A stretch of 64,000 bases of DNA from Candidatus Gastranaerophilales bacterium (GCA_944323485.1 CALUSR010000002.1:68048-132047), one strand, 5' to 3'; shown: positions 1,001-49,549, numbered from the stretch's first letter. Notes: generated by a model not told the origin, from the letters alone. Translations and numbers: made by a program.

Positions 1001-1381
1001 ATGCAGATAAACGCTGTTTCAAATAGTTTTTTTAACACAAAAATAAAACATACCAGCTTCGGAGATAAAGAATATAAACATATAACCTCAAAACCAACAG
1101 ATAAATCTCCTGAAGACTTAAACAAACTTGAGATATATTCACCTGGAGAAACATCTAGAGATATTGATATGTCAAAAATATTCGAAGCTAACATACTCGG
1201 AAGATCAAAAAATCTTTCAAAAGAAGCCATCAGACAAATCGAAGCTAAAGCAACAAGAGATGAAATGGGTGAAAATCCATCCGATGCTGTTCTGCTAACT
1301 TATCTCATAAACGGCGGCGACCCTGCTGTTTTGACAAAAGATGAAGCCAAACGCCTTGAGCCTTATCTGTTCTTAGACTAA
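1001..1381 (+). CDS. hypothetical small soluble protein carrying the MQ..SFG leader
   Basis: 126-aa ORF with SD AGGAG about 9 nt upstream of the ATG. No TM segment and no recognisable domain. N-terminus is MQINAVSNSFFNTKIKHTSFGD. Confidence 0.55.
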   Translation: MQINAVSNSFFNTKIKHTSFGDKEYKHITSKPTDKSPEDLNKLEIYSPGETSRDIDMSKIFEANILGRSKNLSKEAIRQIEAKATRDEMGENPSDAVLLTYLINGGDPAVLTKDEAKRLEPYLFLD

Positions 1382-2553: not shown

Positions 2554-3351
2554 ATGGATAGTGAAATGATTCACAACAGCCAACAAGTATTCAACGACTT
2601 TACAAGATTTCGTATGAACAAAACAAGACCTGCCGCCTCAGGTCAAATGACTGTAGATTCTCACTATCAACATGATAAAAAAAATGATGAGTTTGTAAAA
2701 AAAAATAAAAAAGAAAAATTCAACCTTCCCGTTCTCATTGGAAGCCTTATCGGAACAATGCTGCCTATTGCTGTCATGATTAAGAAACAGGGGCTCAAAC
2801 TCCCATCAGACATAAAAACAAAACCATTCCTTGAGAAAGCAAAAGATTTATACAAAACTTTCAACAAAATAGAATTCGAAGAAAAAGAATTAATCTCAAT
2901 GAGCCTTGGCGGTCTGCTCGGCGGAGCGCTCGCAGGAGCCGCTACGGATAAAGAAAAAAATCCGCAAAATAGAAAAAACAGAATAAAAGAATTTATCTTC
3001 CAGGCTCTGAATGTTTCAATACCGACAATCCTAACAGGTGCACTTGTCAGACAGGTCAGCAAACGAGCAACAAAATATAAAATTCCTCTTCAAATAGCAG
3101 CACCTATAATCGGGGTCGGTGCCGGCATGCCTGCGGCTGCAGCAATTTCAAATAAAATAAATAAAACTTTTGTTGACCCTGAAGATAAAGGGAAAAAAAT
3201 TCATCCTAAAAACTACTTAGTTCATGCTGACGATGCAGTAAGCGCACTGGTCCTTGCAAAAGTACCGCTTGTTGATAAACTTCCGATAAAAGCAATTCTT
3301 CCGGTAATATTTACGAACTGCGGATACGAAACAGGTACTGCAAAAGACTAG
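2554..3351 (+). CDS. hypothetical membrane protein (helix - K/N/D loop - helix hairpins)
   Basis: 265-aa ORF with a polar N-terminus followed by hydrophobic helix pairs, e.g. LLGGALAGAATDKEKNPQNRKNRIKEFIFQALNVSIPTILTGALV. No recognisable domain and only a weak SD. Confidence 0.5.
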   Translation: MDSEMIHNSQQVFNDFTRFRMNKTRPAASGQMTVDSHYQHDKKNDEFVKKNKKEKFNLPVLIGSLIGTMLPIAVMIKKQGLKLPSDIKTKPFLEKAKDLYKTFNKIEFEEKELISMSLGGLLGGALAGAATDKEKNPQNRKNRIKEFIFQALNVSIPTILTGALVRQVSKRATKYKIPLQIAAPIIGVGAGMPAAAAISNKINKTFVDPEDKGKKIHPKNYLVHADDAVSALVLAKVPLVDKLPIKAILPVIFTNCGYETGTAKD

Positions 3352-5450: not shown

Positions 5451-6290
5451 ATGAATTCAAAAATCTTTTCATATAAAATCTCCGACAACCACAAAGTTTT
5501 TACGCTCTTTGGTATAAAAATCAAAATGAAACTTCCTTATCTGAACAGATTTGAGGTACACATCACCGACCATTGTAACCTCAACTGTAAAGGGTGTTCC
5601 CACTTCTGTCCGGTAGCTGATGAGAAATATGTCGATGTAGAGCAATTCAGAAAAGATTTTCAGTGTCTATCTCAAAAAATTGACGTCGGAACAATCAGAC
5701 TCTTGGGAGGAGAACCACTTTTGCATAAGGATTTACCAGAACTCATGCAAATAGCAAGAGAATCATTTCCCCACTCAGCAATAAATATCTGCACAAACGG
5801 CATTCTTTTGCCGACTATGGACGATGAGTTCTGGAACACAGCAAAAAGATATGACATAAAAATCGATATGTCAAAGTATCCGCCGCTTGCTGATAAATTT
5901 GACTCTTATATAAACCTCATAAAAGAAAAATCAAATCAACTCGGAGATATAAATGATATTGAAGATTTTGCGTATGTTCTTAATAAAAAAGGTGACTCTG
6001 ATTACAAAAGAACTTTCGATAAGTGTAAAAATAAATATAAAGCACACGCAAATCTGAATAACGGTATGTTTTATATATGCGGAAGATGTTATCTTACTTA
6101 TTTCAACAAGTATTTCAATACAAATCTTCCTATAGATAATGGCATAAATATTTATGAACACTCCGGTAAAGAAATCGTCAAATTTTTGAATACACCTCAG
6201 AAACTCTGCAGCTTCTGCTTTGAAGACAGACCGACATTCAAATGGGGAATATCAAAAAAAGAAAAAGCAGAATGGCTGAAAGCAGACTAG
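5451..6290 (+). CDS. radical SAM enzyme (C-terminal Cys-rich, SPASM/twitch-like)
   Basis: 279 aa. Cluster motif is CNLNCKGC (CX3CX2C), with LLGGEPLL as the SAM/GGE block. C-terminal cysteines are ICGRC...LCSFC. The N-terminus carries the IFSYKISDNHKVFTLFGIKIKMK tag. Confidence 0.8.
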   Translation: MNSKIFSYKISDNHKVFTLFGIKIKMKLPYLNRFEVHITDHCNLNCKGCSHFCPVADEKYVDVEQFRKDFQCLSQKIDVGTIRLLGGEPLLHKDLPELMQIARESFPHSAINICTNGILLPTMDDEFWNTAKRYDIKIDMSKYPPLADKFDSYINLIKEKSNQLGDINDIEDFAYVLNKKGDSDYKRTFDKCKNKYKAHANLNNGMFYICGRCYLTYFNKYFNTNLPIDNGINIYEHSGKEIVKFLNTPQKLCSFCFEDRPTFKWGISKKEKAEWLKAD

Positions 6291-7069
6291 TCCGGAGCAT
6301 TTATTTCTTTTGCATATTTTTCATTTGCCGATGAGAGTATTTTCTTTTTCTTCTTATAATCTTCTTTGCTAAAATCAGACAGACCCAGTTTGTTCTTATC
6401 TTCCTGCGTCATATTTTTGAAAATACTATTTGTCCTGTTAAATATCCCCTGTTGTTTAAATCCATCAGAAGAAATATGACCGTACATTTTTGGTGGCACT
6501 GATGATGACTTCGGATTAAAAAGATAATTCATGGCAACAGCAATATCAGTACGATGCAAGCCTTGAGCACAGGCGATATAGAACTTTCCTTTATTCATAA
6601 CATCAAATAATTCAGGAAGTTTTTCAATTATGTCTTTTGAATTCATACTTTCTGAATCAATAGGAATATGATAATATTTGAGTCCGTTTTTTTTGCAAAT
6701 ATCCTCATATACAGAGGAAGCATCTCCGCCACGTAAATCTATTACATTCTTAATTCCGGCTTTTTTCAGTACGGGAATAAACTTTCGTCCCTGTCTGCCT
6801 GATAGTGTACTTCCTCTGACTCCGTCATCATTCAGAGGATGCAGATTTGGAATACCTGACTTTTCTAACAAATCATAGTTGAATGAATATGACTCTTTGC
6901 CAAGATTTCTCAGCCGGTATAAAAGATATGAAGAAAGAAACACTTCTGAAAAAGGTATTTTTTTGGGTGTTTTTATCTCTTTATCATGCAAATTTGTTGT
7001 TCGTTCTCGGATGGTTGAAGAAAATACCGTATGGTTATTATTTGTATGCGGTCGAAATACTATATTCAT
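6287..7069 (-). CDS. CX5R phosphatase-like protein (atypical dual-specificity/tyrosine phosphatase fold)
   Basis: 260 aa. P-loop is FYIACAQGLHRTD (C-x5-R-T). About 100 aa of unknown N-terminal region. Paralogue of 7145..8095. Confidence 0.6.
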   Translation of the reverse strand: MNIVFRPHTNNNHTVFSSTIRERTTNLHDKEIKTPKKIPFSEVFLSSYLLYRLRNLGKESYSFNYDLLEKSGIPNLHPLNDDGVRGSTLSGRQGRKFIPVLKKAGIKNVIDLRGGDASSVYEDICKKNGLKYYHIPIDSESMNSKDIIEKLPELFDVMNKGKFYIACAQGLHRTDIAVAMNYLFNPKSSSVPPKMYGHISSDGFKQQGIFNRTNSIFKNMTQEDKNKLGLSDFSKEDYKKKKKILSSANEKYAKEINAPD

Positions 7070-7144
7070 ATAATCAAAATTTTATCTGTTTTTCTATCTA
7101 AATCTGAAAATATAAAAACAAAACATCAAAAAAATTGACAAATA

Positions 7145-8095
7145 TTACAAAATTTTATTAACCAGACTTAAAGTAGCTTTTCTTTTGGGTATCTCATCCA
7201 ACATCTGCTTAAGATTATCCCATCCGAGTTTTGTTGCAAACTCTTCACTCAGACGGGGAATACCCATTTTCTTATCTGTATAACATATATCGTTAACTGC
7301 CGAAAATATCTTATTTGCAATAGCCGTTGTTTTGTTTTTTGAAGTTCCTGCTTCTAACTTCGGAACGGATAAAGGATGTGGATTGAAAAAATAATTTAAG
7401 GCAAGCGCCGTATCAGTCCTGTGCATACCGGTTGCACATCCGATATAAAAATCACCTTTTTTAAGCGTTTCAACAAACTCAGGTATCAGGTCTATATTTT
7501 CTTGAGTCCATTTCTCATCATAAGCAATCGGAAACTTCATATATTCAAGCCCGCTCTTGGCACAAATTTCTCCGTTTTTAAGAGAATCTCCGTCACTTTT
7601 GAGGTCAATAACTCTCTTGATGCCATAATCCTTCAATTTTGCTATTACTTTGCGGCCTTTTCTCGAAAACGGACTGCTGCCTCTTATGCCTGTTTCATCT
7701 GTCGTTATGGCAAAGTTCTCGATGTTCAATTCTTTTGCAGGTAAAAACTTTGATGATTTTGTATCATCAACTTTAATAACAGACGTCGTCAGCTCCTTTA
7801 TTGTTTCATCATCATAAACACCAGCCTGATTTAAAATCCTGTTTCTCAGAATATCCAGCGCAGGATCAAGCGCTCCCTTTGCAACAAATCTGTGAGTTTG
7901 ATCTGGATTATATTTTTGTATATTAATAGCAGCCTTTGATGCAGCACTAATCGCATCACTTGCCTCTTTTGAAAATTCCGTTATGCCTCTTTGAGCAGCC
8001 TCAGAAGAAGGGATTGCTCTTGTTGCAGAAGATTTTGCACAAGCTTGCGTCATCTCAGGTATTTTCTGCACATCAGAAACTTTTGAATAATCCAT
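7145..8095 (-). CDS. CX5R phosphatase-like protein, paralogue
   Basis: 316 aa. P-loop is FYIGCATGMHRTD. It shares the blocks IRGS..S.GRK.I..LK..GIK.VIDL, GL.Y...PI and ALNYFFNP with 6287..7069. Confidence 0.6.
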   Translation of the reverse strand: MDYSKVSDVQKIPEMTQACAKSSATRAIPSSEAAQRGITEFSKEASDAISAASKAAINIQKYNPDQTHRFVAKGALDPALDILRNRILNQAGVYDDETIKELTTSVIKVDDTKSSKFLPAKELNIENFAITTDETGIRGSSPFSRKGRKVIAKLKDYGIKRVIDLKSDGDSLKNGEICAKSGLEYMKFPIAYDEKWTQENIDLIPEFVETLKKGDFYIGCATGMHRTDTALALNYFFNPHPLSVPKLEAGTSKNKTTAIANKIFSAVNDICYTDKKMGIPRLSEEFATKLGWDNLKQMLDEIPKRKATLSLVNKIL

Positions 8096-8202: not shown

Positions 8203-8979
8203 TCAATATGTTTCAGTTCTTTTTTTTGCTTCTTTATATTTTGCCCTGAAATATTCTTTTTTTTCTCCAAAAGATACAAAAAACATCAATTTATAAAATA
8301 AATATTTAAAAAATTCTTTTATTTTTTTAGAATGAAATAATTTTGTGCATAAATCACAGACCTGTTCATCAAAAGACAACTCCTCACTAAGGATAGTATC
8401 ATCTTTAACAAAGACAGACCCGAGTGTATATATAGTTCCGCCATCAAGCCATTTGCCTGTGCGTGCACCTTTATAATATTTTTTTACAACCTCAATAACC
8501 ATATCATTGTATGTGCAAAATGGATAAGCAAACCATTCAAAGCCGCTTTTATCAAGATTTTTCATATAGTCAGGAGCGGCTATCTCCTCCTCGAGTTTTT
8601 TGTAGTCCGATATTTCCTCAAGGTGAGGATGAGATTTCGTGTGATATTGAAGACGTCCGCCTATTTTCATCAAACTTTTCAAATCGTTCTCGTTCAAGAA
8701 AAACTCATCACCCTGCTGGGCTTTATCATAGAAATCTTTGACTAAAAATAATTCAAAAGGGTAGCCAAAGTGTTTGAGAATAGGAGCGGCGTATGTCAAA
8801 ACCGATTTATACCCGTCATCAAAAGTAATCACAACCTGATTTGCATCTGAGGGATTATAGTCTTCAAGATAGACGACAGTCTTATCTTGAAGACTAAGCA
8901 TATGCTTAGTGAATTTTTCAAGACTGATTGAGATTTCATCGTCAACTTCAGGTTTTACGTGGTGATAAAGGAGAATCAT
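8203..8979 (-). CDS. polysaccharide deacetylase (NodB-type)
   Basis: 258 aa with MILLYHHV and VVITFDDGYKS motifs. ATGA overlap with the upstream gene. C-terminal K-rich tail is FVSFGEKKEYFRAKYK. Confidence 0.75.
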   Translation of the reverse strand: MILLYHHVKPEVDDEISISLEKFTKHMLSLQDKTVVYLEDYNPSDANQVVITFDDGYKSVLTYAAPILKHFGYPFELFLVKDFYDKAQQGDEFFLNENDLKSLMKIGGRLQYHTKSHPHLEEISDYKKLEEEIAAPDYMKNLDKSGFEWFAYPFCTYNDMVIEVVKKYYKGARTGKWLDGGTIYTLGSVFVKDDTILSEELSFDEQVCDLCTKLFHSKKIKEFFKYLFYKLMFFVSFGEKKEYFRAKYKEAKKRTETY

Positions 8980-10340
8980 TGATAATACTCATCTTCTAGT
9001 TTCTTTAGTTCCATTTTGTATTTCACATATTTTTCTAAATGAAATTTTTTCTTCCCAAAAGATAACTTCCACATGATTTTGTGAAAATACTTTTTGAACA
9101 TCAGCTCTCTTGGGGAATAAAAGATAAAATCATCCTGCGTATTATTTTGGAAAAGAGAATTCAACACTAAAAACTCTTCTTCAGATAAGTGATTAATCTT
9201 TGAAAACACTAACCTAATATAAGTCAAAAAATCTTCTTTATCAGGTCCAAACACATCGGGCATTTTCATATTATTATCTTTAGCATAGTTAATCAAATTT
9301 TTGTTCACACAGAACAAAAACGGACCTTTGCCAATATGCACGGGATACAATGTTCTATAAGCATCAATATATGTTACATCAAGATTTTTCACATCATCAA
9401 CCAAAAACTGCAGCAGATTTGGAAGACAAATTTTATTTATAAACGTTGCTTTTATCCCATCTTTTGCAAAAAGAAGATTATGTGGCAGCGTAGATACTGC
9501 ACACACGACATGTTCTGCATTCTGCATAAGATGAATTTGTTCAACTGCCGTATACTTTTCCGGAGATATTGAAACAAAACCGTTTTTGTTAAAAAAACTT
9601 TCAATTTTATCTTCGCCTATATCTCTATCGGTAAAAACCCAGTTTTTACGGGAAAGATAGATTTTCTTGTGAGTTTTTATTTTGAGAGGCTTCTCCATCG
9701 CTTTTTGGATAATGTGATTTATCAAAAACTTATACTCTTGTGTATAAAAAATGCCTGCCTCAGAGCAGGTATCAGCAACTATCACTGATTTGAACTTTGT
9801 CGGCTTGCGCAAAAATACGACCTGTTCTCGCTTGAGTCCGATTAACTCAAGAATTTCAAGATAGCTTCCATCTATCTCATAATCATCAACAGGCTGAAGA
9901 AAAACAACCTTTATATCTTTATATTCCTCAGGATTTTTCGCTATCGGATAAAGACGGCAGATGCACTCAAGCAAAAAATGTCCCCACTGCCTTGTACACC
10001 AGCCACCATAAAAGACAGTGTCATCTAAATAGTCACATTCTTCAAATTCATACGTTCCATACATTCTATAACCAGAAGATAAATATCCTGAATTGAACAC
10101 ACCTCCTAGTAAAGCATGAATAGCTGAAGAAGGGATATACTCATTTTTTTTATCAAGAAGTCCCCCACAAAAAGTAAATTTCTTATCTTCATTTAAAAAT
10201 AGTGATGGAAGACAGGTTGCATCATCATATGTTCTTATTTCCAGTTTTCTATCGGAGAAATATTCCTGTTGTTCTGCAAAATCAAGTATTTTCGATGAAC
10301 ACTCATCCCCGAACAGATACTTTCTGTTAATCTTTTTCAT
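8976..10340 (-). CDS. GT61/DUF563-family glycosyltransferase
   Basis: 454 aa. The QWGHFLLECICRLYP block is typical of DUF563. SD AAGGTG lies upstream of the ATG. Tandem paralogue of 10360..11691; both start MKKINRKYLF. Confidence 0.65.
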   Translation of the reverse strand: MKKINRKYLFGDECSSKILDFAEQQEYFSDRKLEIRTYDDATCLPSLFLNEDKKFTFCGGLLDKKNEYIPSSAIHALLGGVFNSGYLSSGYRMYGTYEFEECDYLDDTVFYGGWCTRQWGHFLLECICRLYPIAKNPEEYKDIKVVFLQPVDDYEIDGSYLEILELIGLKREQVVFLRKPTKFKSVIVADTCSEAGIFYTQEYKFLINHIIQKAMEKPLKIKTHKKIYLSRKNWVFTDRDIGEDKIESFFNKNGFVSISPEKYTAVEQIHLMQNAEHVVCAVSTLPHNLLFAKDGIKATFINKICLPNLLQFLVDDVKNLDVTYIDAYRTLYPVHIGKGPFLFCVNKNLINYAKDNNMKMPDVFGPDKEDFLTYIRLVFSKINHLSEEEFLVLNSLFQNNTQDDFIFYSPRELMFKKYFHKIMWKLSFGKKKFHLEKYVKYKMELKKLEDEYYQ

Positions 10341-10359
10341 ATCAACACCTTTGAAAATA

Positions 10360-11691
10360 TTAAAACATCACTTTTTTATATTCTTTTAACCTATTTTTAT
10401 ATTCAATATATCTATTATAAAAATATTTATTTTTACCCTTTATAATCATCGACAAAACTTTATAAAAATATTTTTTAATAAAAAGCTCTCTTTTTGAATA
10501 AAAATGAAATCTGGTTCTCATTATTTTATACAAATTTCGCAATTCATATAAATCTCTATCAGACAAATTATCTATTTTTTCAAAACATAAATCTAAATAT
10601 TTTATGATATCATCTTTCCTTGCTTCTCGTTTAGGGAGTTTCATCCCGTTATCTTTTGCATAGTTTATCAAATTTTCGTTCACATCAAACAAAAAAGGTC
10701 CGATACCGCAATCAGCAGAAAACAATGCTAAATATCCATCAATATATGTTGCATCTATATTTTTAAAATCATCAATTTGAAACTGAGAGGAATTGTATCT
10801 TGGCATTTTATTTATAATCGCAGATTTTATCCCGTCACGAGCAAATAGAAGATTGTGAGGAAGAGTACAAATGGCACTTGCAACATGGTCTGCCCCCTGT
10901 AAAATATGAATTTGTTCCACAAGTGAGTGTTTTTCCATCGATACAGATTTGAAACCGTTTTTGTTAAAAAATCTTTCAATCTTATCTTCACCAATATCCC
11001 TATCATAAGATAATGCCCAATTTTTTCTCGAAAGATATATTTTTTTATGTGTTTTTATTTTGACCGGTTTCCCCATCGCTTTTTCAACAATATGATTGAT
11101 TATAGTTTCATATTCTTTTGTCCAAAAAATATTCGTATTTAATGATGGTTCAGGAACAATAATTTTCTTATACCTCGTTGGTTCTCGAAGAATAACGATT
11201 TGCTCCTCCATTATTCCTATCAAGTTCAACAGTTCAAGAAACGTCCCGTTTATCTCATCATTTTCTCTCATTGGGAGAAAGATTATTTTCATATCTTTAT
11301 ATTTTTCAGGATTTTGAATAATCGGATAAAATCTTGATATACACTCAAGCAAAAAATGCCCCCATTGTTGAACATAAAAACCGCTGAAAAAAACCGTTTC
11401 ATCAGAATATTTTACTTTTTCCGAATCATATTGATAACTTCCATACATTCGATAAATATTAAAATTAATGGTTGCAGTTTCCTCAACATAGTTGTTCTGC
11501 TCATCAACACCACCGCCAATACACATTGGAACAGTACGCCAGGACTTAAATTTCGGAGGAAGAAGAGTTATATTATCAAAAGTTTTTATCGACAGCACTT
11601 GATTACTAAAGAAATTTCGCTCTTCTGCTGTCTTCAAGATTGTTTCAGAATCTTCATTCGCAAAAAGATACTTTCTGTTAATCTTTTTCAT
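10360..11691 (-). CDS. GT61/DUF563-family glycosyltransferase, paralogue
   Basis: 443 aa with the QWGHFLLECISRFYP block. Long collinear similarity to 8976..10340 at both protein and DNA level. SD AGGTG. Confidence 0.65.
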   Translation of the reverse strand: MKKINRKYLFANEDSETILKTAEERNFFSNQVLSIKTFDNITLLPPKFKSWRTVPMCIGGGVDEQNNYVEETATINFNIYRMYGSYQYDSEKVKYSDETVFFSGFYVQQWGHFLLECISRFYPIIQNPEKYKDMKIIFLPMRENDEINGTFLELLNLIGIMEEQIVILREPTRYKKIIVPEPSLNTNIFWTKEYETIINHIVEKAMGKPVKIKTHKKIYLSRKNWALSYDRDIGEDKIERFFNKNGFKSVSMEKHSLVEQIHILQGADHVASAICTLPHNLLFARDGIKSAIINKMPRYNSSQFQIDDFKNIDATYIDGYLALFSADCGIGPFLFDVNENLINYAKDNGMKLPKREARKDDIIKYLDLCFEKIDNLSDRDLYELRNLYKIMRTRFHFYSKRELFIKKYFYKVLSMIIKGKNKYFYNRYIEYKNRLKEYKKVMF

Positions 11692-11762
11692 GAAATAAAC
11701 ACCTATAGAGAAAAAATTTTTTATAATATAATTAAAATTGTAATATAAAAAAGAAAATAATT

Positions 11763-12857
11763 ATGGCAAAAATTTGTAAAAATCCTTTCAAAATTCTGGA
11801 AATTACTCCGGATGGCGAAATTTATCCTTGCTGTCCTGCATATTGCAGAGAATATTCTTTTGGAAATATATATAAAAGCTCTTTTGATGAGGTTTGGAAT
11901 TCGCAAGAAGCACAAAAATTCAGAGAAAAATTACTCAACAACGATTATTCTCTCTGTCAAAGAGATATCTGTTTCCCAAGTTTTTCTGAAACGGATGCTT
12001 CATACAAAACAGTAATGGACTACCCTGAGCATGTTATTTTCTCTCATGATTTGGAATGCAATGCAAGCTGCATAACCTGCAGGGATAATATATGCAGAAA
12101 TTCTTAAGAACAGCTCGAAATACTGAATAAAAGAATTGATACAGTCTATCTTCCTCTTTTGAAAAATGCAAAAATGGTAAAACTCCTCGGTTCAGGAGAC
12201 CCTTTTGCCTCACGTCACTCACAAAAGCTGATAGAAGCCATAACAAAAACTTATCCTCAAATAAGATTTGATATACATACAAACGGCGTTTTATGTTCAA
12301 AAGAAATGTTAGAAAAGTTAAACTTGACCGACAAATTGGAAATAGTCAGTATATCAATGCATGCAGCAACAAGAAAAACTTATGACAAAATAATGAAAAA
12401 CAGCAACTATGATAGAGTTCTTGAAAACATAAAATACTTATCAACATTGAAAAAATCCGGAAAACTTAAAAAGTTAAATTTATATTTTGTCGTATCTTTA
12501 ATCAATTACAAAGAAATGAAAGATTTTGTAAAATTTGCTGAAAAATATGACGCAGATGTAACATTTTGGGAGTATAGAGATTGGGGTACATCTCTCGGGC
12601 TTGACTATGACAATCTTGCTGTTTATAATCCGCTGCATCCGAAATACAACGAGCTTGCAGACATCCTTCAGGATGATATATTCAAAAGCCAGAGATGTCA
12701 TATGAACAACTTGTTTAAATCCATAAAACCTATAAAACGCAATAAACTTGAACTTGCAAAATACTTTTTGAAAAGCAATATCTACAGAAAAAGATACAAA
12801 AATAAAAGAGTTTTGAAATTCTTCGGCTTAAAATTCTCTTATAAGAAAAAATCCTGA
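11763..12857 (+). pseudogene. radical SAM enzyme with N-terminal SPASM-like Cys-rich domain, interrupted by one in-frame TAA (12105-12107)
   Basis: Track ORFs 11763..12107 and 12159..12857 are in the same frame, separated only by a TAA. Read through, the sequence is ...ECNASCITCRDNICRNS*EQLEILNKRIDTVYLPLLKNAKMVKLLGSGDPFA... This gives CX3CX2C followed at the normal distance by the GGE-like GSGDPF block. Confidence 0.7.
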
Positions 12858-12898
12858 AAACATAACGAAACCGATAAAGTTGCAAAAAAATTTCAAAT

Positions 12899-14023
12899 TC
12901 ACATCTCTTTTTTCCTAAATTTAAGTTTAAGCCCAACAAATCTCAATACTTTATGATTTCCATCATTCTTTACTGAGAATAATGACTGTATACAACTTTT
13001 CATAACAAATTTTCCCCCATACTCTTTGTTGCTCTCTTTCAACTTTGTGCTCAAGAATGCTTTCATCCTCGGAGTCAGCCACTCACTGCCGTCTTTTTCC
13101 ACTCTGTTTCTCATCTCGGCATAAAAAGGCGCCTTATGCTCAGGGATTGCTCCAAAAGTCAAAAAAGCATGCGCATTGTAACAATGCGACTCGGGGCATT
13201 TATGCCCTACAGGTCGAAAATGTATCGGAGAGTCGATATCCTCAAAAACATTCTGCAAAACTTCACCGCAATAACACTGTCTCAAATCCCCTGTTGCAAG
13301 ATCAAGCGTGCATGTCCAATCACCTGCGTAGCAAAACTCCCTGCGTTTTTGATTGAATACCGAGAGTTTATACTCAAACATCTTTGAATCAAACTGCGAC
13401 CAGATTTTTTTGTATTCTTCCCTTGAATAATTCGTCAAAATAGGCAGCTCATATTTTGTGTTATCTCTTGCAACGGTGACATGGCAGAGCGCACCAACCT
13501 GCTCAAGGCAAATTTTCTTCATCTCTTCTATTTCGGGGATGACCTCATCACTCGGTGTAAGCTCTAAAGAGAAGGAACATCCAGCCTCACGAACTTTTCT
13601 GATGTTATCAAAAAATTTTTCCATCATCTTGAGCCTTTTCAACTCAAGATACTGAAATGAAAATTTGAATAAAAGCCTCTCAAGCAGCTCTTTTGGCAGC
13701 TGAACAATCTCATCAAAACGTTTTGATACAGTACCGTTTGTGACAACCATAACATAATGCCCCTCTTCGAGAAAACATCTTATTATATCAGTCATCTCCG
13801 GGGGAAGGAGAGTTTCCCCGTTCCCGCATAAGTTCAAACAGCAAATACCCCCTAGCCTTTCCTTACTCAATGCCTTTGCCATATGCTCAGGCGTATATTT
13901 AAACACAGGTAACGCATCAGAAAATTTTCGCTGCTGCGTAATATAGCAGTAATGGCATCTCAAATTGCATGTTGTAACAGGAACATTGCAGTCTATAAAA
14001 CGTTTTATTTTCTCTTCTTGCAT
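12899..14023 (-). CDS. radical SAM enzyme with C-terminal Cys-rich (SPASM-like) region
   Basis: CNLRCHYC motif, plus CGNGETLL, then the C-terminal CYAGDWTC...CYC...CPESHC. I prefer the ATG at 14023 (GGTG SD, 2 nt after the upstream TGA) over the TTG at 14035. Ends with the LFSVKNDGNHKVLRFVGLKLKFRKK tag. Confidence 0.8.
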   Translation of the reverse strand: MQEEKIKRFIDCNVPVTTCNLRCHYCYITQQRKFSDALPVFKYTPEHMAKALSKERLGGICCLNLCGNGETLLPPEMTDIIRCFLEEGHYVMVVTNGTVSKRFDEIVQLPKELLERLLFKFSFQYLELKRLKMMEKFFDNIRKVREAGCSFSLELTPSDEVIPEIEEMKKICLEQVGALCHVTVARDNTKYELPILTNYSREEYKKIWSQFDSKMFEYKLSVFNQKRREFCYAGDWTCTLDLATGDLRQCYCGEVLQNVFEDIDSPIHFRPVGHKCPESHCYNAHAFLTFGAIPEHKAPFYAEMRNRVEKDGSEWLTPRMKAFLSTKLKESNKEYGGKFVMKSCIQSLFSVKNDGNHKVLRFVGLKLKFRKKEM

Positions 14024-14025
14024 AA

Positions 14026-19195: not shown

Positions 19196-19427
19196 ATTTC
19201 CTCTTCAAAATCCGTGTATACTATCCTTATTTTAAATCAAATACGAATTTTTATGGTATTTTGTTAATGTTTTTGAACACCACTATTTTTTATACCTAAA
19301 CGACAAACTATATTTATTTGAAAAAAGGATTTGGAATATATCTTTTGCAGCGAATTTTTACAATTTTCAGACTAAAACTGTATCTTTTCGGTCTCAGACT
19401 TGATTTTTGCCTCGGTAAAATAAGGGA

Positions 19428-20690: not shown

Positions 20691-20760
20691 AAACACCTCT
20701 GACTTATATTTAAACACAATATTTGATATAATTACAACAATACAAAACAACGGAATAAAT

Positions 20761-30248: not shown

Positions 30249-32597
30249 CTATCCGACTTTTTTGAAGAAAGAAATACTGTTTGCTGATAAAGAAATAGAA
30301 GATGAATTATTTCCATCAGAATTAATTGCACTTCTGTTCATGTGTTTTCCTGAACCCGCATATTTGATGTCATCACTGTTAATAACCTCCTGCCAGACTC
30401 CTTGCGGGAATTTTAGGTTCAAGTTATTACTATAAAATTTATCGTCAAAATTCTTGACAACAAAAAATTCTTCGCCGTCTTTCACAACATGATGAGCATG
30501 AACACTATCTTGTATAACAGTTCCATTGTTCGGAATATAACCGTATTTCAACGCCATGCTGTTTTCGACCAAATCATTCATATCATTGCCGAAGCGTTCA
30601 AGCTGGCTGAATATAGCTTTATAATAAGGATTATATTTTATTCTTCCTGGCAAACAATCCTCATATGCAGTTGCAATATCATAACCTTTTTCTTTGATTG
30701 ATTTCTCCCTTTCAGCAAGTTTTTGTTCCGGAGTCATCTTTGAATAGTCTGATGTTTCCCTGAAAAATTTGAAAGGAACTAAAGAACCTTTTTCATCTCC
30801 CTGAAAGAACATCTTTGGTCCTGGAATCGAATATGACGTTCCAAGAGCAAGTTTATGCAACGCTACAGATGCATTAAAAGCATCTTTCACTACATTCATC
30901 GGAATGAAGTTAATAATATCATTATCTTTCAAAAAAGCTTCCCATTTTGCAGAATTTGTAATATTTCCCGCAACAAGATTTTCAATAATTCTTTGTCCTG
31001 TTTGAGCCGCTCTTTGACCGACCTCCGAACTGGAATGTCCCTTGATGTTATAGAAAAGATTAAGACGCTGCGTAAAAATCTTGCTCAAAAGTCTTGTTCC
31101 ATCAATATTTCCTATTTCATCATGGCTCATCATATATTTGACACGATTTGTTGAATTTTTCAGAGATGAATCAAACTCATACATATTTCCATCTCCCTTT
31201 ATCATCTGATTAAGAGAATGGAAAAATACAAAATCCCACTCACTGTCAAAACCGATTTCATTCAACGGAGGAATCCCCCAGTTGCTGTTTACCCTTTCAA
31301 CATCATTATCTATCTGTTTTATATAATTTTCATGGCTTATATTTGAAGGTCTTTGAGGAGTGGTTATTTTCTTGCGGTTTCCATCTCCGTCTTCAGCAAT
31401 CAAAAATGTATCCGGATAGTGTTCGTTCAACTCTGCAACCATCTGCTTTAGAGTAAAATCAGACCCCATATACATAGGTTTTGTCATATCAAACCTGAGC
31501 CCGTCAACTTTATAATTTTTTACCCAATGAAGCCCTAGATTTGATATCCAATCTCTGACATATCTGTTGTCATCGCCTTCGTAGTTGAATACAGCGCCAA
31601 AGGCTCCGTGCCCTTTTTCATAAGGACCTGTTCTCGCAAGCATATCGCCGTCTGGTCCCATATGATTCGGAACAATATCCATTATCACATTCAACCCAAG
31701 ACCGTGTGCATGGTCAATGAGTTCTTTTAGCTTATCAGGGCCTCCCAACTTTTCATTTACGGCAAATTTATCAACCCCGTCATAAGACCAGCCCTTTGAA
31801 TAGGTACCGTCTATCGGCATTATTTCGATGGTATTTGCAATACCGCTTTTGGCTATTTTTTCAAAAGCTGCTTTTGCCGATTCAAAATCACCTTCTTTGG
31901 TCAGAGTAGGAATATTTACTTCCATAATCCTGAGAGCTCCGACTCCCTGCATGCCTGTGCCGACTTTTCTGCTTATTCTTCGAGGGTCTTTGCCGTTTAT
32001 CCAGTCAGTATTTTTCCATTTATATTCCCCATGGTCATATAAAGTTGACCATCCCATAATATGCTCTTGTTTTTGAGCATAAGGGTCTTTCACCTTTTCA
32101 ATAACCCCATCTGATTTGACTATCAGATATCTGTATCTGTCACCTTTTTGAGCAGGAATATCATGAGCAGAAAAAACACCGTCAGATTTGTTTGTCATCT
32201 CATAAATCTTTGAGTTTTTATCTTTAGGGCTTATTTTGACATCTCCGTCTTCTGAATTTTCTACGATTATTCCTCTTTCATCAATATTATCAAAATTCGC
32301 CGCATTCTTTTTACCGGACATAACTTCTATATAAACTTTTTTCGCATCAGGAAAAGAAAACAGTTTGAAATCAGCAGTACCATCAGAATTTAGGCGTGGT
32401 TCCCAGCTGTTGTGTTCTTCTACGCTGCGCCCGAAAGATAAAATATTATGGCGAAAAGCAGAAGAAGGAATATTATTCGAAAGAGAAAGAGGTGTTGATA
32501 CAGAGTTATCAGACGATTTTATATCATTAGTTTTTGATAATTTGTTATGATTTTTATTAAAAAATAAGCGTTCTCTTAACTCGTTATCTACAAACAT
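30249..32597 (-). CDS. GH13 alpha-amylase-family enzyme (TreZ/branching-enzyme-like, N-terminal E-set/CBM48-like region)
   Basis: GH13 regions: I NVIMDIVPNHMG, II VDGLRFDMTK, III FLIAEDGD, IV YMMSHDEIGN. The block GWSYDGVDKFAVNEKLGGPDKLKELIDHAHGLGL is also present. ATG at 32597 has a GAGAGGTG SD; the track GTG start is 32603. No signal peptide. Confidence 0.85.
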   Translation of the reverse strand: MFVDNELRERLFFNKNHNKLSKTNDIKSSDNSVSTPLSLSNNIPSSAFRHNILSFGRSVEEHNSWEPRLNSDGTADFKLFSFPDAKKVYIEVMSGKKNAANFDNIDERGIIVENSEDGDVKISPKDKNSKIYEMTNKSDGVFSAHDIPAQKGDRYRYLIVKSDGVIEKVKDPYAQKQEHIMGWSTLYDHGEYKWKNTDWINGKDPRRISRKVGTGMQGVGALRIMEVNIPTLTKEGDFESAKAAFEKIAKSGIANTIEIMPIDGTYSKGWSYDGVDKFAVNEKLGGPDKLKELIDHAHGLGLNVIMDIVPNHMGPDGDMLARTGPYEKGHGAFGAVFNYEGDDNRYVRDWISNLGLHWVKNYKVDGLRFDMTKPMYMGSDFTLKQMVAELNEHYPDTFLIAEDGDGNRKKITTPQRPSNISHENYIKQIDNDVERVNSNWGIPPLNEIGFDSEWDFVFFHSLNQMIKGDGNMYEFDSSLKNSTNRVKYMMSHDEIGNIDGTRLLSKIFTQRLNLFYNIKGHSSSEVGQRAAQTGQRIIENLVAGNITNSAKWEAFLKDNDIINFIPMNVVKDAFNASVALHKLALGTSYSIPGPKMFFQGDEKGSLVPFKFFRETSDYSKMTPEQKLAEREKSIKEKGYDIATAYEDCLPGRIKYNPYYKAIFSQLERFGNDMNDLVENSMALKYGYIPNNGTVIQDSVHAHHVVKDGEEFFVVKNFDDKFYSNNLNLKFPQGVWQEVINSDDIKYAGSGKHMNRSAINSDGNNSSSISLSANSISFFKKVG

Positions 32598-32744: not shown

Positions 32745-32746
32745 CT

Positions 32747-35700: not shown

Positions 35701-36748
35701 GTGTTGATCTTGGCATACCGTTTTCATCGACATTCCAAACTCTCGGACTGTTGATAATTCTTATATCCCAGTTATCTTTAGCCTTTTCATCAAGAGGTAA
35801 AACGCCGTATCCTATAGGTTCATTTTCGTTGCCAAAAAATTCAAACCAGTTATAATACGGAGAATTTGCTCCATATTTATGAACGTCGATAAGGTGTATT
35901 CCCTCTAAACCTTCATTGACAAAAGCACCATCAAGAATCAAGCCCATTCCGTTTTTATACAAATCAACGACAAGGTCCTTATAATCTTTTTCGGTACCGA
36001 GCGACGGCTTCAGCTGATAAGCATTATTTGTCCAATATCCTATAGGAAGAGGACCTGATGCAAACAGCGGAGTTGTCATGATATTTTTTGCTCCGACTGA
36101 TTTAATATAAGGAACAGCATCCGCAATATCTCTGATTGTTCCGCCGTAGTTTGTATAATGAGTAGAACGCCAGTTATTCGTATTAAACTCTATAAAGTCA
36201 TCTTCACCAATTTTTCTGACCTTTTTGTTTTCGCCTTTCGGATTCATATTATAGGGGACAACATGATACATCGTTTGAGGTCCCTTGAGAGAAGATGCAT
36301 AAAGTTCCTGAGCTATATTGTATGTTTCTCCGTCAACAGTCGCATTTTGGAGATTATCGGTATATGGTTCTCCATCTATAATAAATCTATATCCGAGAAT
36401 AAAATCGTCATCCTCTGGACCGAGATAAACATCACTGTCTTTCGGGTTAAATACGGCTTTATTGTTTCTATCAAGAGGAATTTGATATTTTCTGCCGGTA
36501 CCGTCTTCGTTGATATTTTCAACGTCAATTATATTTCCGTTTTTATCTTTGAGAAGTCTTACAAGCTCTACTTTTGCATCATTATATCTTGCATTAGGAA
36601 GATAGAAGTTATATAAACGTTCTCCATGGTCGTTTTCTACAATCTTATGACCGCTAAACCCTATTGACTGTCTTTTATCAGGTCTTGTTGTTGTTAAAGA
36701 TTTATTTTTATTTGGATTTACAGCATTTATTGATGATACATAAAACAT
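32747..36748 (-). CDS. giant divergent GH13-family protein
   Basis: Residues are numbered on the 1340-aa track translation. Region I-like GLILDGAFVNEG (D280), region II GLNWRIDAAKD (D774), region III YKIGEFTD (E821), region IV GGNHDKPR (H921, D922), plus TPTLFSGDELG. ATG at 36748 has an AGGGAAG SD; the track GTG start is 36769. Confidence 0.7.
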   Translation of the reverse strand: MFYVSSINAVNPNKNKSLTTTRPDKRQSIGFSGHKIVENDHGERLYNFYLPNARYNDAKVELVRLLKDKNGNIIDVENINEDGTGRKYQIPLDRNNKAVFNPKDSDVYLGPEDDDFILGYRFIIDGEPYTDNLQNATVDGETYNIAQELYASSLKGPQTMYHVVPYNMNPKGENKKVRKIGEDDFIEFNTNNWRSTHYTNYGGTIRDIADAVPYIKSVGAKNIMTTPLFASGPLPIGYWTNNAYQLKPSLGTEKDYKDLVVDLYKNGMGLILDGAFVNEGLEGIHLIDVHKYGANSPYYNWFEFFGNENEPIGYGVLPLDEKAKDNWDIRIINSPRVWNVDENGMPRSTHGEKNESYDPSQPTYIQLFDRRLTSAEQLDRQKLFDKYDIANVEDPNEIKDYMDGVQPYKFQVSPEELEQKFRKYDDSDEFKYSLLDWNKFSLTTSNKDRKANLWVGNKDIAKLRFMTPQDKLSDVYENAGGGEAGALKVAAVKKAEKEVQDYIVGIGEYWTRKTSNIINSYNAQQLHGAKTVDDYKAKIKEAVEKGNLPQSVLSLSNPSDKTLENYMSGDYDYYNIPAPVASIEEGLKAFPLEAIEFSPELTSILGSPVFKELAEDRIYNGALKAKAIEVLELLDRSDKTGRRLLSGNKLNYNNAEVYDLISDDITKFLIVNALTDSYFDNDDHQDVQRLNQIGLNSLDINGSTHEEVARKLVARLEEGLKSININKLQPYVEYLEKDVIKGASADDLRVAKLLADKAQAGLNWRIDAAKDIADIESIGTKANSEECMDSIISFWNKFNKGVDKYNKHAYKIGEFTDAGILASGSPKYPNAGTVEEKFVEDSGFTTQTNYNYQYSILHGIYGGFPELGSGEGGYNAPIGKLTEKLLYAWNGTPGFLFSGPKYNVNNSHIAGGNHDKPRIHHGFALNTKLAYSNYMGSKLEPSVTDELKDMMEGSEFYTPYIEEAVRINDEISKLYEKEKEGELTGEQRAHLVNLKEQERLSVGNRLFKIVSPEALAMEAAILDAVKQTLPENTPDKYMTQFIQTVDDLAKTRNNGEYFAVRGFQDNWKDILNAMPEGEAKEFFSTKVKEADVEEAFLKPAMIKGDAMYFLKALLPGTPTLFSGDELGLTGFESKSKNQYLQNRGRGRFEYIGGMVEAENRNRENSEYRKYAEENVKEVSRALNLRLDGSLSPLVDGETIVLKSPANPEADGFENHGHQHDQRVFGLYRYNDKTDVIALASNEGFSDTRRVNPQKVTLDKIDMSHGYIKPTASDKKDKFDVGLPFKLEEGTVYVDAYNPDSKTEYIVNKDGDIVNKEEGKPIEFKEFLILMRKA

Positions 36749-41392: not shown

Positions 41393-42513
41393 TTCTGAAC
41401 ACCTCCGTTATTATCAGAGGAATGTTCCTGAAATTTATGATTTTTCAGAGACGTTTTTGCAAGAATTGTTGAAATAGCAACGGCGGGAAGAATCAAAGAT
41501 GATAAAATAGCCGTTCTGCCAAGAATTTTTGATGTTCTTGAAACACCTTCTTTTATTCCTTTTGCTCCCCACAATTCTTTAAACGAGTCGACTATAGGTT
41601 TTTTCAAATTTTCTGAGAGAGAAGCTTTAAGCTCTAAAAATCTTATTTTTGGTTTCTTATTTTTGTTACCGAGTCCTTTTATTGCACTCCAGATGCCGTG
41701 TCCATTCATATCACCGCCTATTTTTTGGAAACTTTTCTGAGAAGAAAGTCCAAGACCGGTCATAACAAAAGGAGCGGTAATAATATATTTCCATCCGTTT
41801 GCCATAGCAATAGTTTCTTTGATTTTTTCACCTACAACAGTGTCAGAATCGTTTAATTTTGTTTTGTTATCTACACCGAAGCTTTTTGCTATTTCATCAA
41901 ATTGAGAATTGATTTTTTCTGCCTCGGGCTTGTGGTAATTGTAGGCTAGTCCCAAATTTGTAAAATCTTTGCTTTCTAACCAGTTATGATATTCAACTTT
42001 CTGATTATCAGGTAATTTCAGCGGAGTATCAGCCCTTAAATCGACCATATGTTTATATTTCTGGTTCATATCGATATTTCTGAAAGATTTCAGAGGAATA
42101 TCAATGACTGCTTTTGCGGCTGTTGCTGCAATATAATACATTGCAACCCCAAGGGCTATTCTTTTTGTAACAGCATTTGTTGCATTTCTTGCTGTAATAT
42201 TATTTCCGTTTTTTCCTGCCAGAAACATGAGTGCAAGAACAGGACCGCCGATAAAATAAGGGATTTTTGTTATTTTCAAAAACTCAAAAAAGTTTGCGTC
42301 AGGATCCCCCTGCAAACCACGTGAAACATATCCCGGAAGCTGCTTAAGCTGTTCTTTATTTATTCTCATTTTTTCTGAAAAAGTATCCGGTAAAAGCTCA
42401 TCCTTTTGATGTTCTTTCAACTCCGGATAAACTTCAGTTAAACTTTCTCCAAATGTGGATTTGGACTGATTTCTAACTGCTCCCAAATTGTTATTTATAG
42501 AACTTACTTGCAT
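41389..42513 (-). CDS. uncharacterised 375-aa membrane protein, paralogous to the N- and C-terminal parts of 38720..41392
   Basis: ATG at 42513 gives MQVSSINN...; the track TTG start is 42519. Hydrophobic hairpin is GGPVLALMFLAGKNGNNITARNATNAVTKRIALGVAMYYIAATAA, followed by IDMNQKYKHM. C-terminal TM is AILSSLILPAVAISTILA. Confidence 0.6.
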   Translation of the reverse strand: MQVSSINNNLGAVRNQSKSTFGESLTEVYPELKEHQKDELLPDTFSEKMRINKEQLKQLPGYVSRGLQGDPDANFFEFLKITKIPYFIGGPVLALMFLAGKNGNNITARNATNAVTKRIALGVAMYYIAATAAKAVIDIPLKSFRNIDMNQKYKHMVDLRADTPLKLPDNQKVEYHNWLESKDFTNLGLAYNYHKPEAEKINSQFDEIAKSFGVDNKTKLNDSDTVVGEKIKETIAMANGWKYIITAPFVMTGLGLSSQKSFQKIGGDMNGHGIWSAIKGLGNKNKKPKIRFLELKASLSENLKKPIVDSFKELWGAKGIKEGVSRTSKILGRTAILSSLILPAVAISTILAKTSLKNHKFQEHSSDNNGGVQK

Positions 42514-48081: not shown

Positions 48082-48816
48082 ATGCAGACTACGAGGCTAC
48101 ATCAATCAGAATTTTACAAGCATCGCCCAAAGAGTGTGATTAAGCGAGCTGAAAATGAAAATAAGAGTGTGCAAAATAATAATAAATCCGCAAGTATGAG
48201 TACGAGCGGATTTTTTAGTGCAAAAAATACAACAAATGCTGACACAACAAGTTTTCAAGGAAATGTTGGTCAAAAAATATTAACAAGCAAACCATTTTTA
48301 AGCTTTGCTAAAATGTCAAAAAGTCAGGCAATGGTTGAAGCCTTTTCTGCTCTGATTTTGGCAGGAGTCCTTAGACCGGCGACAATACTGGCAACAGGAA
48401 AAGGCAAAGATGACAAAGATACACAGTATGCAGCAGTTCATGGCATTGCCTCAGCATCTATCGGTTATGCCTTCACTGTTGCCATCACCTCACCAATTAA
48501 AAAAGGCGCAGAAAAATTAATGAAAAAACTCAAAGATAATCCTGATTTTATGAAAGGAAGTTATCTCAAAGCAGGAAAAGACGCCTCAGAAGAGGTAGCA
48601 AAAAAAGCGGCAAAATACGCAGACAACTTCAAACTCGTTGCAGAATATGCCCCTCAAATGGTATTGGTTCCTTTCAGAGCAGCATTAACTGTTGCACTGA
48701 TTCCTCCAATTATGAAGGTGCTTTTCCCGAACCATAAAAAAACTCAAAAAGCTGAAGAAAAATCAGCCCAAACGGCACAAAATCAAGTAAAGGAGCAGGC
48801 TAATGCAAGTAAATAG
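48082..48816 (+). CDS. hypothetical membrane-hairpin protein
   Basis: 244 aa, SD GGTGGA. Polar leader ends in TTSFQG. Hairpin is AFSALILAGVLRPATILATGKGKDDKDTQYAAVHGIASASIGYAFTVAITSPIKK. A second hydrophobic region is VLVPFRAALTVALIPPIM. Confidence 0.55.
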   Translation: MQTTRLHQSEFYKHRPKSVIKRAENENKSVQNNNKSASMSTSGFFSAKNTTNADTTSFQGNVGQKILTSKPFLSFAKMSKSQAMVEAFSALILAGVLRPATILATGKGKDDKDTQYAAVHGIASASIGYAFTVAITSPIKKGAEKLMKKLKDNPDFMKGSYLKAGKDASEEVAKKAAKYADNFKLVAEYAPQMVLVPFRAALTVALIPPIMKVLFPNHKKTQKAEEKSAQTAQNQVKEQANASK

Positions 48817-49549
48817 AATTCAACCTAACATGTCTGCTCGAAATAAGAGCAACGTAACCTTCGCAGGAGTACCAAAAGTTCTATCACAGGCCAGCGATAA
48901 ACTAAGCGACACTGTAGAACTCGGTTTGGAAAAAGTTGCAAAATCAAAAGGTATCGAAAAATTTATAAGAAAAGTTACCGACGCAGGAAAATCCGGCTGG
49001 CTCAGACAGGGATGTATCATCGGTGTAAGTACTGTTCTCAGCTCATTCTATATCATACAAACTCTTACTAATAAAAATATAGAAGAAAAGAACAAAAAAC
49101 CTCTTGCAATAAACAACGCCATAACATGGGCTATTCCGACGGCAGGCGCTATCGCTCTTGATAAACCTATTCTCAAATTGTTCGGAAAACTCGGTGATGC
49201 CTTTGAAAAAGCAAATGAAGGCGGAAAAGGCAAAAAATATCTGGATTGGGCAGCAAAACATTATAAAGACGGTGATTTCGCAGCCCTCAAAAAAGGTGTT
49301 GCAAGAAACGCAGCAACAGGTTTGTGCTTCGCATTTATGTACAGATACATTACTCCTGTAATTGCGACTCCTCTGACAAAGAAAATAACAGCAAAAATAC
49401 AAAAAAGAAAAGAAGAAAAAGAAATGGCTCAACAACCTGCTGTTCAAAAAATAAGCGTAAATCCTCAAGAACAGCTTGTCAAAGCAGGTCAACTCAGCAG
49501 AACAAAAAATGCTCAAGCAATGAGCACTTTCAAAAGCTTCCTAAAATAA
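48803..49549 (+). CDS. hypothetical membrane-hairpin protein, paralogue
   Basis: 248 aa. SD AAAGGAG lies 7 nt upstream, inside the end of the previous gene, with a 14-nt overlap. Leader is MQVNRIQPNMSARNKSNVTFAG. Hairpin is CIIGVSTVLSSFYIIQTLTNKNIEEKNKKPLAINNAITWAIPTAGAIALDKPILK. Confidence 0.55.
   Translation: MQVNRIQPNMSARNKSNVTFAGVPKVLSQASDKLSDTVELGLEKVAKSKGIEKFIRKVTDAGKSGWLRQGCIIGVSTVLSSFYIIQTLTNKNIEEKNKKPLAINNAITWAIPTAGAIALDKPILKLFGKLGDAFEKANEGGKGKKYLDWAAKHYKDGDFAALKKGVARNAATGLCFAFMYRYITPVIATPLTKKITAKIQKRKEEKEMAQQPAVQKISVNPQEQLVKAGQLSRTKNAQAMSTFKSFLK

Follow-up and report, generated by a model that had tools for sequence, protein, structure and literature searches.

The window, by which we mean the whole 64,000-nucleotide stretch of DNA that was analyzed (Candidatus Gastranaerophilales bacterium, GCA_944323485.1 CALUSR010000002.1:68048-132047), contains six genes whose products begin with a polar N-terminal leader built around a phenylalanine, and this leader is the subject of the present analysis. 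The host belongs to the class Vampirovibrionia, the non-photosynthetic sister of Cyanobacteria, and its genome has a GC content of ~35%. For its MnmG gene, at 52994-54868 on the minus strand, the counterparts in metagenome-assembled genomes of Gastranaerophilales and Melainabacteria show 68-73% identity, and a near-identical version of the protein encoded at 1001 is known from Candidatus Adamsella sp. (NCBI naming). Below, genes are named by the position of their first nucleotide, and proteins with the leader are called carriers. The six carriers in the window are:

1001..1063, plus strand: leader of g1001 (gene 1001-1381), a soluble protein of 126 residues; MQINAVSNSFFNTKIKHTSFG, Phe at residue 20
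32430..32597, minus strand: leader of g32597 (gene 30249-32597), a TreZ/GlgB-like GH13 enzyme of 782 residues; ends ...RHNILSFG, with R next, Phe at residue 55
36650..36748, minus strand: leader of g36748 (gene 32747-36748), a GH13 enzyme of 1333 residues; MFYVSSINAV...RQSIGFSG, Phe at residue 31
42448..42513, minus strand: leader of g42513 (gene 41389-42513), a polytopic membrane protein of 374 residues; MQVSSINNNLGAVRNQSKSTFG, Phe at residue 21
48082..48261, plus strand: long leader of g48082 (gene 48082-48816), a membrane protein of 244 residues; ends ...NADTTSFQG, Phe at residue 58
48803..48868, plus strand: leader of g48803 (gene 48803-49549), a membrane protein of 248 residues; MQVNRIQPNMSARNKSNVTFAG, Phe at residue 20

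All six N-termini read as an earlier note on this DNA had quoted them and lie where it had placed them (g1001 starts MQINAVSNSFFNTKIKHTSFGD and g42513 starts MQVSSINNNLGAVRNQSKSTFGE), and its division of the carriers into two GH13 enzymes, one small soluble protein and three membrane proteins is correct, each of the latter three having a pair of moderately hydrophobic segments and a third one. The start codons hold as well: orthologues begin at the same Met, and a Shine-Dalgarno-like sequence lies 6-9 nucleotides upstream of each of the six starts. Two parts of the earlier description need to be relaxed. Namely, the strict motif [ST]-F-[GA] is present in four of the six leaders, the other two reading G-F-S-G and S-F-Q-G, and the proposed fixed position of the Phe (residue 20, 21 and 20) is true of three genes and fails as a general rule, with the Phe lying at residues 12-58 over the 22 families described next. 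An all-against-all BLASTP comparison of the six carriers found no detectable mutual similarity, and homology among them was for this reason dropped as the cause of the shared leader.

The anatomy of the leader, as drawn from 22 unrelated families, is as follows. An N-terminal cap (N-cap) favors M-[QKN]-[IV]-[NSQ]-x-[IVL]-[SN]-N, with mostly I or V at position 3, I, V or L at position 6 and N at position 8. The spacer that comes after it spans ~2 to 45 residues, is intrinsically disordered and is rich in N, S, T, Q and K; relative to the proteome, N is represented 3.2-fold, S 2.1-fold and Q 1.9-fold, while D and E are down to 0.25-fold, and the net charge is 0 to +4. Finally, there is an anchor of the approximate form [TVLPI]-[STNA]-F-[GKST]-[GASRK], in which the Phe is effectively invariant, preceded by T, V, L, P or I at -2 and S, N, A or T at -1, and followed by G, S, K or T at +1 and G, A or F at +2, with Lys common at +3 to +5. 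The anchor usually sits just ahead of the first conserved or folded element, although another variable stretch follows it in both g1001 and g42513.

Orthologues of all six families keep the leader, and its conservation reaches as far as environmental Melainabacteria. In a syntenic genome with proteins ~50% identical to those of the host (L081), the counterparts read MQINKISNTNYKLKQPSFTS (the leader of P0005, the 49% identical orthologue of g48803), ...CEPNFGG (the end of the leader in the orthologue of g48082), MQVNSVYNKFNQAKNLQNASFGE, ...AISFSGHK and ...LRAYSNISFSRS. The fourth of these belongs to the g36748 family, where a conserved HK(I/V) follows directly upon the leader and where the orthologue from an environmental Melainabacterium (L093) has SVSFTGHK, and orthologues of g42513 at 50-88% identity retain MQ[VI]...[ST]xFGE. 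The g1001 family is particularly instructive: its members are 90-100% identical in the body of the protein, whereas the first ~35 residues exist as two alleles only ~33% identical, and M1, I3, S7, N8, F11 and F20 are invariant across both. At the DNA level, the region from ~910 to 1112 (the intergenic space and the first ~37 codons of g1001) is 60-73% identical to the related locus L099, compared with 90-100% for the flanks, and the upstream region and leader together have the look of a cassette, comprising promoter and leader, that is replaceable or hypervariable.

The strongest evidence comes from relatives of g32597, for which a search of 1.84 billion representatives gave ~40 full-length matches at 50% identity or below. 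These TreZ-like relatives bear an N-terminal extension of 25-75 residues, which starts in the manner of M-[KQR]-[IV]-x-x-[IV]-N, often contains NL[KQ]AY and ends in [IVPL]-[SN]-F-[GKT]-[RH], ~7 residues ahead of a conserved EHxSWGA, as does F55 in g32597 itself. An alignment of 38 such sequences has a mean column identity of 25% and just 11 invariant columns. The leader Phe, always F and never Y, W or L, occupies one of these, and catalytic residues (Asp, Glu, His and Arg) are among the others. AlphaFold2, run on the same alignment, gave a model of g32597 with a mean predicted local distance difference test score (pLDDT) of 88, in which residues 1-56 score below 50 and a confident fold begins at ~57, such that S54-F55-G56 falls within the predicted disordered segment. 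The best fold matches of this model in the PDB are TreZ and GlgB (glycogen branching enzymes), in agreement with NCBIfam. In other words, the Phe is as conserved as the active site and yet lies outside the fold, as would be expected if a single dedicated partner were to read the motif in trans. The leader of g1001 is predicted to be disordered, too, in a low-confidence AlphaFold2 model (mean pLDDT 57); identifying the fold of g1001 from the same model was given up on account of that low confidence.

What is conserved is the peptide. Namely, codons vary between carriers, with Phe encoded by TTT and TTC, Gly by GGA, GGT, GGC and GGG, and Ser by all six of its codons, and the carriers have no in-frame or nearby start codon downstream of the motif; taken together, these observations indicate that the constraint acts on the amino acid sequence. 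They also rule out, along with the orthologue starts, an internal Shine-Dalgarno sequence or a misannotated start as the origin of the motif. What is more, an extended form, NL[KR]AY...SF, is common to two unrelated families, namely the TreZ-like enzymes and a family of 461-residue proteins (L003). The claim of a common N-terminal tag on unrelated proteins is thus borne out, in the sense that the tag is conserved and constrained at the protein level.

Is the leader more frequent at N-termini than one would expect? A composite position-specific scoring matrix with two blocks (residues 2-8 and the 8-mer around the Phe), for which the six families with their orthologues were the sole training set, reached a score of at least 12 in 7 of 562 held-out N-termini from Melainabacteria, as opposed to 3 of 2432 Met positions internal to the same proteins (Fisher p=5.6e-4) and 0 of 791 Firmicutes N-termini (p=0.002). 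Similarly, a strict regular expression for the N-cap matches 2.5% of Melainabacteria N-termini, compared with 0.3% of internal Met positions and 0.3% of controls. Polar, acid-poor N-termini are typical of the lineage (49 of ~560 open reading frames (ORFs) versus 4 of 784 controls), and the resemblance goes beyond chance, as had been argued earlier from the position of the Phe: 14 of 28 families with such N-termini contain the anchor, while within-sequence shuffles yield 5.5±2.0 (P=0.0002). An independently fetched locus (L104) gave two new ORFan carriers, MKVQNINNADLSFKA and ...NNVSFGFK, and none of the housekeeping proteins among ~600 ORFs bears the leader. None of the three outcomes that the earlier note had named as refuting the tag was seen, the motif being enriched at N-termini, the starts holding in orthologues and related genomes keeping the leader.

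Altogether ~22 families were catalogued, part of the catalogue having been put together by inspection; most are ORFans or membrane proteins, and most have no Pfam domain. In addition to the six above, they and the candidates in the window include:

94-residue protein adjoining mnmG in several genomes; MQINNNLQSPSFKS...
relatives of the window gene 2554-3351
461-residue family (L003); NL[KR]AYIPSF
three small proteins (L093)
the two ORFans from L104
an α/β-hydrolase and, each represented by a single sequence, a CheR-like methyltransferase and a protein of the sigma-70 family
7016..7069, minus strand: leader of a candidate seventh carrier in the window (gene 6287-7069), a phosphatase of dual-specificity or protein tyrosine phosphatase (DSP/PTP) type with PTP matches in Pfam; starts MNIVFRPHTNNNHTVFSS
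36850-38730, minus strand: GH13-626 gene; polar N-cap MLNNISY..., with no clear Phe anchor in the window
38720-41392, minus strand: gene for an 890-residue protein; polar N-cap MSNMIIQNY..., with no clear Phe anchor in the window

The case for the phosphatase is weaker than that for the six, even if it is among the anchor-positive polar N-termini and its TVFSS is retained in a related strain. Relatives of the GH13-626 and 890-residue genes in another genome (L096) do bear a Phe anchor (ASFSGEK and NPSFAAT).

The leaders were compared with a number of known signals. As noted earlier, they have no hydrophobic h-region, twin-arginine, lipobox or prepilin motif, and the same picture emerges from the 22 families: no 10-residue stretch has more than 3-6 hydrophobic residues, unlike in a Sec type I signal, where a basic n-region precedes an h-region of about 8-15 residues and an AxA-type cleavage site; Tat signals have (S/T)RRxFLK ahead of an h-region, and none of the 22 matches RR.[FGAVML][LITMVF] or has an h-region; and neither the lipobox [LVI][ASTVI][GAS]C nor the type IV prepilin motif G|F(T/S)L(I/V)E, which is followed by a hydrophobic helix, occurs in any of the 22. 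Genuine Sec signals are present on other host proteins (56818-57408 and 29622-30152), and the lineage has a genuine prepilin of its own (MKKGFTLLELL..., locus L102). Sec, Tat, lipoprotein, prepilin and double-glycine leaders are likewise N-terminal and common to unrelated cargo. Double-glycine leaders (C39/PCAT) are 15-30 residues long, have conserved hydrophobic and acidic positions (LSxxELxxIxGG), end in GG, GA or GS and serve small peptides, whereas the leaders described here are depleted of D and E 4-fold, have F, A, S, Q, K or T rather than G as the residue before Gly and come on cargo of up to 1333 residues. In 10 carriers examined against NCBIfam (E<=10), no model matched the N-terminus, while 29 leader segments compared with Pfam at E<=10 contained neither Flg_bb_rod nor any other shared family. 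With no Pfam or NCBIfam model matching and with the literature on N-terminal motifs or signals in Melainabacteria yielding nothing relevant, we agree with the earlier assessment that the leader is not recognizable as a described signal.

Closest in logic, by analogy, is the propeptide cleaved by the Prp protease. The Prp motif, MLxx(D/N)LQ(F/L)F'A(S/H)KK, is found on ribosomal protein L27, on the capsid and scaffold proteins of phage 80α and possibly on FlhB (PMC9405229). Like the leader, it is a short N-terminal extension with no hydrophobic region, placed on unrelated cytoplasmic proteins and ending in Phe and a small residue, and it is read by one dedicated cytoplasmic enzyme, which is the logic that we propose for the leader; the shortest leader even has N-L-Q a few residues before the F (MQINNNLQSPSF'KS), as in the Prp motif. 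The differences are equally clear. In particular, the leaders end in [STNA]-F-[GKST] and not in (F/L)F-A, have no FF or LF doublet, are 12-58 residues long compared with ~9, and after the F have mostly G, K, S or T and not A. The phyla given for Prp are Firmicutes, Fusobacteria, Synergistetes, Thermotogae, Tenericutes and Spirochaetes, the cyanobacterial lineage not being listed (PMC9405229). No L27 or Prp (PF04327) locus lies in the window or the fetched loci.

Two further analogies deserve mention. Terminal degrons and protease handles include the bipartite ssrA tag, the N-degrons read by ClpS, and N-terminal tails of at least ~20 residues at which FtsH initiates; as with the leader, these are disordered terminal peptides on soluble and membrane proteins alike, they are read in the cytoplasm, as the leader probably is, and an aromatic anchor would be plausible for them, while we know of no bacterial degron with a lineage-wide consensus of this kind. 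Chloroplast and apicoplast transit peptides, on the other hand, have an uncharged N-terminus, a hydroxylated or N/K-rich, acid-poor spacer and a semi-conserved FGLK-type motif, and import depends on Phe in glaucophytes and red algae. The leader resembles them in composition, disorder and variable length, several carriers have an F-x-G-x-K-like anchor (FSGHK, FTGHK, FSGEK, FGDK), and the lineage is the sister of Cyanobacteria. Transit peptides, however, act in the eukaryotic cytosol with Toc/Tic, and the resemblance may be purely compositional; we treat it as an analogy only.

Taking these results together, we consider it likely that each of the six N-termini represents a genuine tag at the protein level, one specific to Vampirovibrionia/Melainabacteria and read in trans. 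As to its function, our tentative proposal, to which we would give somewhat less than even confidence, is that the leader is a handle, read in the cytoplasm and anchored by the Phe, through which carriers are processed, turned over or docked. The tag would have three parts, i.e. the N-cap, the disordered spacer and the Phe anchor, and a protease, an adaptor or a hub would receive the Phe in a hydrophobic pocket, much as happens with bipartite degrons or the Prp/L27 propeptide, with one dedicated partner reading it in trans at the cytoplasmic face. Reading from the cytoplasmic side is favored by the TreZ/GlgB-like and neopullulanase-like GH13, sigma-70, CheR-like and α/β-hydrolase carriers (in its catalytic region, g36748 is similar to neopullulanase and to the maltodextrin glucosidase MalZ), as well as by the GH77 (MalQ) gene that adjoins one TreZ-like family member, and the N-termini of the membrane carriers are probably cytoplasmic, given that they have no signal peptide. 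Secretion, which was among the functions first proposed, appears less likely, since several carriers belong to normally cytoplasmic families.

That said, several points weigh against this interpretation. The 8-residue anchor is a low-information motif, which on its own is enriched just 1.4-2 times at positions 10-62, and held-out proteins show weak coupling of the N-cap to the anchor (rho 0.10, p 0.02), because of which the word bipartite can be applied to the leader only tentatively and as a description. Among the ~22 families in the catalogue, some may have matched by chance. The putative sigma-70, CheR-like and hexapeptide-repeat carriers are each a single sequence, and the latter two may have alternative internal starts. 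Two distant TreZ-like homologues bear Sec signals, and the cargo, consisting of ORFans, small proteins, moderately hydrophobic membrane proteins, phosphatases and a hydrolase, is also what one would expect of secreted effectors. Finally, every step from the motif to its function is one that we infer from sequence.

The best-surviving alternative, which we nonetheless regard as somewhat unlikely, takes up these features of the cargo and holds that the leader directs Sec-independent export, handing its carriers to a one-step machine such as the flagellum's type III secretion system (T3SS) acting as an exporter, or an undescribed system, in which case the carriers in the membrane would themselves be translocated or would resemble a translocon. 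Early flagellar T3SS subunits have an N-terminal small-hydrophobic signal (positions 3-7) and a gate-recognition motif FxxxΦ (PMC8983047). The leader, too, is at the extreme N-terminus, disordered, acid-poor and rich in hydroxyl and amide side chains, and has small hydrophobics followed by a polar spacer and then a Phe-based motif, with I/V at position 3 and I/V/L at position 6, i.e. within the flagellar range, dominating. The mainly lineage-specific cargo, the fast diversification of the g1001 leader between strains and the Sec signals on the two distant TreZ-like homologues would all fit export. Most Gastranaerophilales genomes keep just a subset of the flagellar genes, complete sets being found in only some (PMC4040986), and chemotaxis genes occur in some carrier genomes. 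The agreement with early flagellar substrates, however, does not extend to the Phe rule, since F comes before residue 30 (at 12-26) in 16 of 22 leaders and the residue at F+4 is hydrophobic in only 7 of 22, nor does it extend to the cargo, which is not flagellar. A remnant of the flagellar rod/hook signature (NN[IL]AN.NT.G[FY]K) or of a flagellin start was considered and rejected, as spacing and consensus do not fit. At ~3% of genes, the flagellar secretome would be unusually large; the window and the fetched loci hold no flagellar genes, and no secretion genes adjoin the carrier genes in the window or in the loci examined. Lastly, the GH13, sigma-70 and CheR-like carriers have cytoplasmic relatives, and canonical TreZ homologues begin directly at the first strand of the domain, with no signal. 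For these reasons, we do not favor a Sec-type or T3SS-type secretion signal.

A broader proposal, rather unlikely in our view, would make the leader the address label of a new, Sec-independent targeting pathway specific to Vampirovibrionia, leading to export or to a dedicated destination and working through the N-cap and the invariant Phe. In its boldest form, it would imply that this acid-poor presequence, dependent on Phe and rich in hydroxyl and amide side chains, is akin in mechanism to the way in which plastid transit peptides later came to be recognized through Phe, an idea that draws on the analogy discussed above.

Could the leader have no dedicated function at all? An AT-rich genome may tolerate or accumulate low-complexity polar N-termini, the resemblance among them being due to convergence and selection by eye, and the Phe may have a structural role peculiar to each family, at the point where the fold begins. 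The abundance of polar, acid-poor N-termini in the lineage, the shortness and low enrichment of the anchor, its weak coupling to the N-cap and the partly manual catalogue are what such an explanation would predict. Against it stand the excess of anchors over shuffled sequences in the polar-leader families, the invariance of F over 38 TreZ-like sequences in a segment that AlphaFold2 leaves unfolded, the persistence of the same g1001 positions through a near-complete replacement of the leader, and the extended NL[KR]AY...SF form in two unrelated families; with these in mind, we consider it improbable.

Less probable still is shared descent, according to which a single small mobile N-terminal module was spread by recombination or gene conversion and has been passively retained. 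Both the g1001 cassette, with its identity lower than that of the flanks, and the extended form common to the TreZ-like and 461-residue families point in this direction. The leaders, however, vary in length, sequence and codons and could be found with no recourse to similarity at the DNA level, and passive retention leaves an invariant Phe at 25% mean column identity unexplained. Shared descent would, in any case, account for the spread of the tag and not for its maintenance, and it is compatible with a tag that is read in trans. Finally, selection of AU-rich early codons, or of an internal GGAG within 'F-G-E/D', for translation initiation or pausing, with the peptide as a by-product, agrees with the AU-rich codons of MQIN-type starts and with the GGAG contained in TTT-GGA-GA(A/T) of g1001 and g42513, but is extremely improbable given the codon variation and the missing downstream starts described above, the retention of amino-acid classes rather than bases at -1 (S/T/N) and +1 (G/K/S/T), and the fact that Firmicutes loci fetched in the same way, the base composition of which was not measured, do not have the pattern.

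Several observations on the carriers and their surroundings may be added. The weak NCBIfam matches of the g1001 body (window 1169-1270, residues ~57-90; …ILGRSKNLSKEAIRQIEAKATRDE…) are to sigma-factor region 4 (E 0.04-0.1). The C-terminal tail of g48803 (window 49400-49549) ends in ...AMSTFKSFLK and that of its orthologue P0003 in ...SNIFKSFVK, such that an anchor-like [ST]-F-K-S is found also at the extreme C-terminus of this family. The candidate phosphatase is one of two DSP/PTP-type paralogues (window 6287-8095, minus strand) that are 41% identical, one of them with the leader-like N-terminus, and both give near-threshold Pfam matches to 'polymorphic toxin system DSP-PTPase'. Among the single-sequence carriers, the sigma-70 protein has 584 residues and three region-4-like stretches (L022 13352-15106), while the hexapeptide-repeat (LbH) protein (L017 11930-12559) starts in a leader-like fashion with MQPVLMYPNN...PTTSFTPQK, and its internal Met 25 or 29 could be the real start.

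Five of the window genes described above form an operon that Melainabacteria conserve, found on the minus strand of the window at 30249-42513, at 10001-21083 in L081, and also in L084, L090, L093 and L096. It consists of a polytopic membrane protein (the g42513 family, with an invariant GDPxANF), a protein of 650-890 residues that matches nothing in Pfam or the PDB, and three GH13 enzymes (626, 1333 and 782 residues), and in the window it is followed by a membrane-anchored thioredoxin (29622-30152). A search for remote homology of the membrane protein and its 890-residue neighbor to solved structures gave no significant match. As a whole, the operon has the appearance of an α-glucan module like treX-treY-treZ, coupled to a membrane protein. 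The neighborhoods of TreZ-like carriers vary elsewhere: one (L104 7445-12433) is divergent from BamA/Omp85, with a VKOR-DsbA fusion beyond, and another (L107 8062-12346) is followed by a GH77 4-α-glucanotransferase (MalQ). Elsewhere in the window, radical S-adenosylmethionine (SAM)-type proteins are predicted at 5451-6290, 11763-14035 and 25495-27306, the last of which is the only one confirmed by Pfam, while the other calls rest on Cys-rich N-termini and 11763-12107 and 12159-12857 may be fragments. Glycosyltransferases and a polysaccharide deacetylase lie at 8203-21612, as assigned via syntenic genes in L099, and this radical-SAM and glycosyltransferase block is probably a surface-polysaccharide locus.

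Short terminal tags common to unrelated proteins have time and again led to sorting and processing machines, such as the sortases, the exosortases, the type IX secretion system (T9SS) and Prp. By estimate, 2-4% of genes bear the tag described here, across the whole of an almost uncultured class often met in animal guts, and for the most part the carriers have no known function. If the tag is real, it would define a testable 'regulon' of proteins with one fate, and its reader could be sought through it, by peptide pull-down or by phylogenetic profiling. In addition, it would improve the annotation of Melainabacteria, the closest non-photosynthetic relatives of Cyanobacteria, both in the choice of start codons and in the flagging of processed or targeted proteins.

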